DNA of 37,362 bases from a virus. Shown in pieces: positions 34,325 through 35,866 of this stretch. Numbering within the stretch: position 1 is the first letter of the stretch; each line of letters starts with the position of its first letter. The stretch lies in the IMG/VR virus record IMGVR_UViG_3300045988_106398; one strand, written 5' to 3'. The position numbers were made by a program, and so were the translations under genes. A model generated the notes under the pieces. The model ran no database searches. It was not told where the DNA came from and worked only from the letters and a program-made list of their open reading frames with translations.

Positions 34325-35866
34325 ATGGGAATAAGTGATATTTTCAAAATCAAACAATTCAAAGAAGAAATATCTAGTCTTAAAACTGCTAACTCAAAGC
34401 TCTGTGAAGAAAATCGTTCATTAAACAATAAATTATCTGAAATGGGTGCTTATGACTATTACAAAATAAAAGAAATGATTTCATCAGCTGAACAGGAACA
34501 CAAAAATAAGATTTCCGAATTTGAAATAGAATTCGAAAATATAAAAAAAACAAACGAATCCATTTTGGAAAATCGTATTTCAGCATTGAAACAACATTGT
34601 GAAGATTTGTCAAATAGAGAAATTGAATTAAATAATTTAACATCTCAACGCTCAGCCGAACTTTCAAAATTGATAAAGCAAGTAAAAACTCAGACAAATA
34701 AGCTTTCACGTTCTAAGGAATTAGTTAAAGCAGTTGATTATGTTTTAAGAGAATTCTTGAATTACGAACCTGCCCAATCAGCTATAAAATTAAAGTCTGA
34801 AGATATTGAAGATATCGAAGAATTTAGTCCATCTGTAATCCTAAAATTACATTGTATGGATGTAAAAGATTTGAGGAAAGCCTATAGAGAAAACGACAAA
34901 CAAATAAATTCCATTCTTGAAAAATACTCTGCTAGGTACACAACAAAAGCTAATCAAGCAATTTATAAATTAATGGTCATTGCTTTACGTGCTGAATTGC
35001 AGAATATTCTCTATAACTTAAAATATGAAAAACTAGAAAAATCTACAGATGACGTTAAAGCTGTCACAAAAAAATATTTAAAAATCGCCGCAGATGGAAA
35101 TCAAAGTATCGCCGGAACCCTTACAAAGTTTATCGGCGAAATAGAGTATCTTTTCATCAACGCTGTTAAAATCGAATATAATTACTATGTAAAAAAAGAA
35201 CAAGCAAGACAAGAACAGTTAGCTCTTCGCGAGCAAATGCGTCAAGAAGCAGAAGAACGCAAAGCACTAGAGGCGGAACGCAAAAAAGTGGAACGCGAAG
35301 AAGAAAAATATACAAACGAAATAAACAAGATTACAGAACAACTATCCTCTGCTAAAGATGGTGAACTTGAAAAACTTAAAGCAAGAATACTTGAGCTTCA
35401 ATCTCAGCTTGCTGATGTTGTGATTAAAAAAGAAGAAATTTCCACTCTTGCAAATGGAAAAGCTGGAAATGTGTACGTAATAAGTAATCTTGGTTCGTTT
35501 GGTGAAAATATATTCAAAATAGGTATGACAAGACGTCTGAATCCTCAAGATAGGGTAAACGAACTAGGAGATGCTTCTGTGCCGTTTAAGTTTGATGTTC
35601 ATAGTTTTATTTTCTCAGACGATGCTGTTGGACTTGAAAGTAAATTACATAATATCTTAAATGAAAAGCGAGTAAATAAAGTCAATATGAGGAAAGAATT
35701 TTTCTATACAACAATTGATGAACTTGAAACATTGGTGACCGAAATAGAGCCAACTGCTGAATTCAATAGAACTATGATTGCTGAAGAGTATAGGCAATCA
35801 TTATCTAGTACAGAAAACTATTCTTCTACTTTCCACTATGAAAATGGTGATAACGAAGAATACTAA
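34325..35866 (+). CDS. Long coiled-coil protein with C-terminal T5orf172/MUG113 (GIY-YIG-like) domain, DUF4041-like architecture
   Basis: The C-terminus GNVYVISN....NIFKIGMTRRLNPQDRVNELGDASVPFKFDVH..IFSDDAVGLESKLHN.L...RVN......EFF matches the T5orf172 pattern. The N-terminal ~370 aa are heptad-rich and charged. Confidence 0.75.
   Translation: MGISDIFKIKQFKEEISSLKTANSKLCEENRSLNNKLSEMGAYDYYKIKEMISSAEQEHKNKISEFEIEFENIKKTNESILENRISALKQHCEDLSNREIELNNLTSQRSAELSKLIKQVKTQTNKLSRSKELVKAVDYVLREFLNYEPAQSAIKLKSEDIEDIEEFSPSVILKLHCMDVKDLRKAYRENDKQINSILEKYSARYTTKANQAIYKLMVIALRAELQNILYNLKYEKLEKSTDDVKAVTKKYLKIAADGNQSIAGTLTKFIGEIEYLFINAVKIEYNYYVKKEQARQEQLALREQMRQEAEERKALEAERKKVEREEEKYTNEINKITEQLSSAKDGELEKLKARILELQSQLADVVIKKEEISTLANGKAGNVYVISNLGSFGENIFKIGMTRRLNPQDRVNELGDASVPFKFDVHSFIFSDDAVGLESKLHNILNEKRVNKVNMRKEFFYTTIDELETLVTEIEPTAEFNRTMIAEEYRQSLSSTENYSSTFHYENGDNEEY

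Follow-up and report, generated by a model that had tools for sequence, protein, structure and literature searches.

An anchor-less, sequence-diverged member of the SNIPE/PD-λ-1 family, probably a defence nuclease, in the lysogeny module of a temperate siphovirus-type phage

PD-λ-1, found by experiment to be a single-protein, direct-defence nuclease of E. coli (Vassallo et al. 2022, PMC9519451; PMC13190303), is now known as SNIPE (Saxton et al., Nature 2026, PMC13190303; bioRxiv 10.1101/2025.11.03.685801). As described in PMC13190303, a single N-terminal transmembrane helix anchors the E. coli protein at the inner membrane, its DUF4041 domain binds DNA and also contacts the tape measure protein of siphoviruses, and its GIY-YIG domain, with the essential catalytic residue E414, cuts the phage DNA during injection; the infected cells survive and the induction of a resident prophage is unaffected. 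Siphoviruses are targeted by way of their tape measure protein, and 34% of the SNIPE homologues have no predicted transmembrane helix (PMC13190303 / 10.1101/2025.11.03.685801). For these the published argument is that they carry other membrane-targeting N-termini, of DivIVA type in some, and some have N-terminal PH-domain fusions (PMC13190303). The family, its defence role, its mechanism and the occurrence of transmembrane-less homologues with varied N-termini are, as set out in that paper, already published. The window considered here -- the whole stretch of 37,362 nucleotides (nt) of IMG/VR virus record IMGVR_UViG_3300045988_106398 -- carries at 34325-35866, on the plus strand, a gene for a 513 amino acid (aa) protein of this family without a transmembrane helix. 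It is probably a SNIPE/PD-λ-1-family defence nuclease of a temperate siphovirus that, by analogy with the E. coli protein, would cut siphovirus DNA at entry and so protect the lysogen.

Like SNIPE, the window protein is a single polypeptide of about 500 aa, made up of an N-terminal localisation region, a long helix, a helical central domain, a charged connector and a T5orf172/GIY-YIG nuclease, and like SNIPE it is carried on a temperate phage as an accessory gene. Several features set it apart: it has a cap and a leucine zipper in place of the N-terminal transmembrane helix; its central domain lies below Pfam detection of DUF4041 and gives no BLAST alignment; its host is a Gram-positive clostridial bacterium, to which the ManYZ and periplasmic context of E. 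coli need not apply; and it belongs to a repressor-ImmA-int operon, whereas the E. coli gene is a lambdoid phage moron near ren/nin. Other known systems share less with it. HK97 gp15, Zorya and Kiwa act at genome entry, as proposed here, and prophage-encoded entry blockers give lysogens a tape-measure-dependent protection from siphoviruses (PMC13190303), but HK97 gp15, Zorya and Kiwa have no sequence relation to the window protein; furthermore, HK97 gp15 blocks injection without nuclease activity, and Zorya and Kiwa are multi-protein membrane complexes.

The gene lies where its initial annotation placed it. It begins with an ATG that has the ribosome-binding site GAAAGGAAG 6-9 nt to its 5' side, and an in-frame N-terminal extension is impossible because open reading frames (ORFs) were listed from the first start codon after a stop. 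The protein matches the PADLOC PD-Lambda-1 profile PDLC03976 from aa 46 to 501 (profile positions 41-478 of 491) at E=2.4e-79 and the companion profile PDLC03977 at E=1.1e-76, as well as PHROG 1847, a family of unassigned function, at E=2e-100; full-length hhalign comparison with nine reference proteins aligned 423 columns at a probability of 100%. Over the connector helix and nuclease (aa 301-494) it shows 46% identity by BLASTP to the "PD-lambda-1" protein of E. coli PhiR26_1, whose gene was located by tblastn of GenBank phages; this protein was used as the SNIPE reference because its E223, W257 and E414 match the numbering of the SNIPE paper exactly.

The C-terminal T5orf172/MUG113 domain named in the initial annotation is readily recovered by Pfam (MUG113 at aa 397-473, E=8.6e-18; T5orf172 at aa 382-474, E=2.7e-13), and the motifs quoted there lie at aa 301-328 (REQMRQEAEERK...), 395-423 (NIFKIGMTRRLNPQDRVNELGDASVPFKF), 437-443 (LESKLHN) and 458-460 (EFF). 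The nuclease domain, of GIY-YIG type, extends over aa 381-497 (35465-35815, plus strand) and carries VYVIS and FKIG motifs. E438 aligns with the catalytic E414 of SNIPE, and E438, R403/R404, R410 and N451/N454 are invariant in both of the alignments made, A1 and A2. By its sequence the protein is a full-length SNIPE/PD-λ-1 family member with a conserved T5orf172/GIY-YIG-type core, for which catalysis is predicted, and the earlier suggestion of a single-gene nuclease acting in phage defence or exclusion is supported by the full-length PADLOC match, the 46% identity and the retained catalytic glutamate. The accompanying view that no function is assigned to this architecture has been overtaken by the characterisation of PD-λ-1/SNIPE (PMC9519451; PMC13190303).

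Homologues bear GenBank names such as "putative regulatory protein", "chromosome segregation ATPase" and "helicase", which would suit a regulator of lysogeny or an SMC-like protein of chromosome segregation, as would the weak match found with the NCBIfam model for AAA-like ATPases of the TrlF family. That match scores 22.9 bits against a cut-off of 350 and was dismissed as coiled-coil noise; no ATPase or helicase domain was found by Pfam, the old annotations probably reflect coiled-coil composition, and RefSeq now names the same proteins "DUF4041 domain-containing". A regulatory or SMC-like role is the least probable of the explanations considered, and hardly to be credited.

An AlphaFold2 model built on a diverse alignment (mean predicted local distance difference test score, pLDDT, 86) has helices at aa 5-40 and 43-143, a globular helical domain at about aa 158-257, further helices at 260-342 and 345-376, and an α/β domain at 381-497. 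It replaces an earlier run on a shallow alignment (at least 70% identity), which gave a poor model of the nuclease, a mean pLDDT of 69 and an uninformative fold search. The long helix of aa 43-143 (34451-34753, plus strand) is modelled with pLDDT above 90 for aa 50-130, and within the clade its sequence is variable at about aa 50-115. The charged connector helices, aa 260-376 (35102-35452, plus strand), include the REQMRQEAEERK... stretch, which aligns with the helix C-terminal of DUF4041 in E. coli SNIPE. As modelled, the protein has a SNIPE-like layout, in which long helices lead to a helical globular domain and a connector helix joins this to an α/β nuclease. The roughly 370 aa of heptad-rich coiled coil described initially gives way in the model to long helices flanking a globular helical domain, and the idea that the coiled coil serves as a sensor fits poorly with SNIPE, where it is the globular central domain that senses and binds DNA while the N-terminus localises the protein (PMC13190303). 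Foldseek against BFVD gave 28 matches at E<=1e-3, almost all of them to the nuclease domain; those listed are mostly T5orf172 or BRO-like proteins, with one named GIY-YIG, and the single near-full-length match is probably a mis-annotated member of the family.

The central domain, about aa 158-257 (34796-35095, plus strand), is built in the model from helices at 158-167, 181-202, 208-230 and 237-257 with pLDDT of 88-97. The pairing of DUF4041 with T5orf172 that had been suggested for this protein is confirmed by Pfam for the second domain only: DUF4041 (PF13250) has no match in the window protein at E<=10. It is also found in 0 of the 120 closest homologues and 0 of 55 diverse representatives of the subfamily, as against 9 of 9 reference phage proteins and all 120 of the top matches of their profile. 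The subfamily is a modest one, since a search with aa 1-301 of the window protein against 1.84 billion cluster representatives matched only 225 clusters. BLASTP of the central region with E. coli SNIPE gave no alignment. With hhalign, a weak first comparison with a profile of nine DUF4041 sequences (score 22.0, P=0.005, probability 7%, 41 columns) was superseded by one with 53 non-redundant DUF4041 sequences, which scored 29.8 (E=2e-4, probability 46%) and aligned window aa 160-246 collinearly with SNIPE aa 130-228 in 86 columns; the reversed control scored 14.5, and 30 column shuffles scored 12.8±1.9 with a maximum of 17.5. These alignments suggest that the domain is likely, though not proven, to be a strongly diverged one of DUF4041 type, and by analogy with SNIPE it would be the site of DNA binding and of contact with the tape measure protein. 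In practice the central domain of this subfamily escapes annotation by Pfam, but the protein is recognised by PADLOC.

Along with this central domain, the other variant feature of the window protein is its N-terminus. There is no transmembrane segment: the maximal Kyte-Doolittle mean over 19 residues is 0.98 and does not exceed 1.15 across the 120 closest homologues, compared with 3.37 in E. coli SNIPE and 2.60 in gp42 of phage CDMH1. Nor is there a gene for a small membrane protein beside it that might act as an anchor in trans, the flanking gaps of 74 nt and 166 nt being too short. Aa 1-40 (34325-34444, plus strand) form instead a module recognised from the clade alignment A2 and its heptad register: an MGIxDIFK cap, in which M1, G2, D5, I6 and F7 are near-invariant, followed by a leucine zipper with I9, F12, I16, L19, N23, L26, N30, L33, L37 and M40 at the a/d positions and asparagine at two of the "a" positions. 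Cap and zipper are more conserved in A2 than the adjacent helix. They are also found in 15-16 of 118 bona fide DUF4041 proteins, among them gp32 of the Lactobacillus casei phage PLE3, all of which are without a transmembrane helix. N-terminus against N-terminus, hhalign found no similarity to the reference set as a whole. In the 55 representatives that share the central domain of the window protein, the N-terminus includes a transmembrane-like segment in 36 and is of CxxC...CxxC type in 9; in the others it is short and of MG(I/L)F type. Because the cap and zipper are shared with DUF4041 proteins while 36 of the 55 relatives by central domain have a transmembrane-like segment, the N-terminus appears to be an exchangeable, presumably localising, module, in keeping with its published description as a variable "adapter" (PMC13190303).

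In the nine proteins with the CxxC…CxxC N-terminus (P0137, P0143, P0150, P0178, P0181, P0192, P0209, P0225 and P0253), a zinc-ribbon-like sequence, MAKCxxCGKKGFFLKVNxxGxCxxCE, replaces the transmembrane helix; it does not appear to be among the N-termini given for SNIPE homologues in PMC13190303. Two other relationships were considered for the N-terminal region of the window protein and set aside. A DivIVA/GpsB-like domain was rejected, there being no match to Pfam DivIVA (PF05103) at E<=10 and no FRGY-type loop; DivIVA matched 1 of the 55 subfamily representatives. A PspA/Vipp1 α0-like amphipathic helix, a speculative proposal for the MG(I/L)F N-termini, does not suit residues 9-40, which fit the zipper register and not a single amphipathic face. 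Pfam DivIC matches the region weakly (E=0.052).

In related prophages (loci L001-L008, about 9597-11061) a 76%-identical homologue, P0010, is often followed directly by a gene for a 124-aa bPH_1 (PF08000) protein, then by DUF4236 or Abi_2, and then by a serine recombinase. The separate bPH_1 gene could be a split version of the published PH-domain fusion; it does not occur in this window, and few of the GTDB loci have it.

The mechanism that would follow from kinship with SNIPE can be set out in a few steps. The protein would be made in the lysogen together with the repressor and would wait at or near the cytoplasmic face of the membrane; at siphovirus injection its central DUF4041-like domain would engage the DNA as well as the tape measure protein, and the nuclease would cut that DNA while it is entering, so that the lysogen, and hence the prophage, would be protected without killing of the cell and without harm to the prophage's own induction. 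The cap and zipper, the obvious candidate for an anchor replacement, would dimerise the protein and substitute for the anchor, either by docking on a membrane-associated partner or by holding the nuclease in an autoinhibited state until injection. Production in the lysogen, location, range of targets and timing of the cut are all drawn here from the work on the E. coli protein.

A number of points weigh against this reading. The chief problem is that the anchor is missing: deprived of its transmembrane helix, E. coli SNIPE becomes toxic, binding and cutting host DNA and attacking the nucleoid (PMC13190303), and an anchor-less protein therefore cannot act exactly like SNIPE unless it is otherwise restrained. 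No DivIVA, PH or other membrane-targeting Pfam domain matched the N-terminus at E<=10, and association of the cap and zipper with the membrane is purely our inference. Pfam does not see DUF4041 in the protein, and the profile-profile support for it, at a probability of 46%, is moderate. Foldseek of the model against the PDB -- run with the whole chain, in which the long helices dominate, and not with the isolated nuclease domain -- returned no match at E<=0.001, only coiled-coil noise. Expression in the lysogen is deduced only from gene order and from consensus scans for promoters and terminators, and the promoter-like sites, of which 14 were found where 19.7 were expected from shuffled sequence, are weak evidence. 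The SNIPE-like mechanism itself is borrowed from the E. coli protein.

The absence of a transmembrane segment from the window protein and its 120 closest homologues, together with the cutting of host DNA by SNIPE without its helix (PMC13190303), would also suit a cytoplasmic abortive-infection nuclease, autoinhibited until a phage cue sets off indiscriminate degradation of DNA and the infected lysogen is killed or arrested; Abi_2 genes do adjoin homologues in some prophages. The whole architecture, however, is collinear with that of a protein of direct defence, a published case exists for other membrane-targeting N-termini in the transmembrane-less homologues (PMC13190303), and the conservation of cap and zipper above that of the adjacent helix fits a role in docking or localisation. 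Abortive infection, though an unlikely explanation, ranks first among the rivals, ahead of a homing nuclease (considered below) and of the regulatory or SMC-like role.

If the SNIPE-family reading is right, this transmembrane-less cap/zipper subfamily with its diverged central domain might separate incoming from host DNA without an integral membrane anchor: its zipper might dock on a coiled-coil protein of the host membrane or divisome, of the FtsB/DivIC/FtsL type, or on the injection apparatus, or the protein might be soluble and autoinhibited, with the tape measure protein as the only trigger of its nuclease. This is offered tentatively and we think it rather doubtful, but either docking or soluble autoinhibition, if true, would be a distinct Gram-positive answer to the problem of self and non-self that SNIPE solves by anchoring. 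Natural variants without an anchor, set against the toxicity of anchor-less E. coli SNIPE, make the manner of localisation or restraint bear on how general the rule of "self/non-self by location" is.

The order in the window -- cI-like repressor, ImmA protease, SNIPE-like gene, integrase -- is as the initial annotation had it, and Pfam identifies the neighbours accordingly. The same order of repressor (with or without ImmA), family member and integrase recurs, with more distant, DUF4041-positive relatives, in Clostridioides difficile CDMH1, Streptococcus pyogenes Javan523, Streptococcus pneumoniae EJ-1, Corynebacterium Poushou (helix-turn-helix [HTH], metalloprotease, family member, Y-int), Staphylococcus PMBT9 and L. 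casei PLE3. ES18 and the E. coli lambdoid phage carry the gene as a moron at another genomic position. The 76%-identical homologue lies between a repressor and a serine recombinase, and the slot stays constant while the replication modules differ among the prophages. Counted over the three downstream genes at 50 GTDB loci, recombinases number 36 (22 Phage_integrase and 14 Resolvase); counted over the two upstream genes at 70 loci, there are 54 HTH_3, 12 Peptidase_S24 and 11 Peptidase_M78. A cruder phmmer census put a recombinase downstream at about 43 of 80 loci. Shared by many temperate phages that are unrelated to one another, the slot between repressor and recombinase is the usual home of the SNIPE family in Gram-positive temperate phages, and the neighbourhoods of homologues, proposed early on as a check, are overwhelmingly lysogeny or moron positions in prophages and not replication or structural modules. 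The window gene is in this respect largely ordinary, an anchor-less and sequence-diverged version of SNIPE in the usual place in the lysogeny module.

The relatives in this slot for which proteins were compared (CDMH1 gp42, EJ-1 ORF3, PLE3 gp32, Poushou gp33 and that of PMBT9) differ from the window protein in having a clear Pfam DUF4041, with E-values from 1e-11 to 3e-25. CDMH1 gp42 shows 33% identity to it over 92% of the length, and PLE3 gp32 has the same MGIxDIFK cap and zipper and likewise no transmembrane helix, whereas the proteins of CDMH1, EJ-1, phi5218, PMBT9 and ES18 have the N-terminal transmembrane helix that the window protein lacks. No functional study of these DUF4041-T5orf172 proteins of Gram-positive phages was found in the literature searched.

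The GC content of the window gene is 31.6%, against 38.3% for the whole window and 37-41% for the structural genes; the cI-like gene (34.1%) and immA (33.3%) are also low. This composition suggests an acquired accessory gene, and the low values of all three genes are consistent with a mosaic, horizontally exchanged lysogeny module. Horizontal acquisition would also suit a selfish nuclease of homing or mobility type, spreading itself rather than defending the host, and in phages such as ICP1 T5orf172 genes do serve as homing endonucleases or domesticated derivatives of them (PMC10448857, PMC8263062). But the match to SNIPE is full-length, taking in some 380 aa outside the nuclease; the gene is co-directional with the repressor in the lysogeny operon, in a slot kept beside unrelated integrases and serine recombinases; and the protein has no DNA-binding module of the kind found in homing endonucleases. 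A homing nuclease is very improbable on these grounds, and defence by a SNIPE-family nuclease is the better account.

The putative operon begins with the cI/ImmR-like HTH repressor gene at 33400-33813 (plus strand; Pfam HTH_26 and HTH_3), which overlaps by 4 nt the gene at 33810-34250 for an ImmA/IrrE-type metalloprotease (plus strand; Peptidase_M78, E=2.4e-16), and a cro-like HTH gene lies divergently at 33009-33254 on the minus strand. The tyrosine integrase, of 387 aa (Pfam Phage_integrase), is encoded at 36033-37196 on the plus strand; both its ribosome-binding site, AAAGGAG, and the gene calls made on identical contigs favour the ATG at 36033 over the TTG at 35946 as its start. Of two divergent promoter-like sites between the cro-like and cI-like genes, one is at 33223-33251 on the plus strand and the other, which it faces, is at 33356-33328 on the minus strand. 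The 166 nt between the window gene and int (35867-36032, plus strand) form a structured region with three hairpins (minimum free energy -42.9 kcal/mol, z=-4.06), and 0 of 200 shuffles folded as well. The first hairpin, 35876-35903, scores as a minus-strand terminator, while the last, at about 35962-35996, is followed by a U-rich tract shortly before int and looks like a plus-strand terminator of a cI-immA-SNIPE transcript. We infer that the structured region and its terminator-like hairpin would fit such a transcript being made in the lysogen.

The HTH/ImmA pair (33400-34250, plus strand) also matches the PADLOC models for capH/capP (capP at E=1.7e-17) and for RmrA. Repressor/protease pairs of phages and defence regulators of CapH/CapP type are hard to tell apart by sequence; since a divergent cro-like gene is present, the pair is taken to be the phage's own switch.

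The window is a complete temperate genome of siphovirus type, with genes for terminase, portal, major head, major tail and tail proteins, a 923-aa tape measure protein and an endolysin. Its closest genome-resolved relatives by window protein (72-74% identity) belong to Mediterraneibacter and uncultured Lachnospiraceae, others come from Ruminococcus, other Lachnospiraceae and Oscillospiraceae, and the host is probably a gut clostridial bacterium of the Lachnospiraceae. No isolate phage is close to it, since a 25-kb part of the window, compared by megablast with the phages of GenBank, gave one match of 95 bp only. The identical protein is indexed in 138 blocks of the assembly collection, and in the 24 contigs read among those that carry it, it is found both in integrated prophages, with int followed by host genes, and in a circularly joined form, in which int is followed by the lysis and tail end of the window. 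The analysis adds this very common prophage of the human gut to the carriers of SNIPE-type immunity; as SNIPE spares resident prophages, the prophage-borne copy is a plausible superinfection-exclusion gene that would shape competition between phages in the gut.

At loci L092-L097 the same phage adjoins differing host genes, its int occurs in variants of 387 and 383 aa, and the circularly joined form is again seen. The endolysin (219-1262, minus strand) has Amidase_3 together with choline-binding repeats, a hint that the wall polymers of the host are decorated with choline. Within the minus-strand early region a 70-aa ORF rich in cysteine and histidine lies on the plus strand at 32586-32798 (…EECTFCPS…GCYFCCHSCHNG); it has a full-length match to PHROG 4298, of unassigned function, at E=2.5e-28, is also among the genes called on identical contigs, and resembles a small moron.

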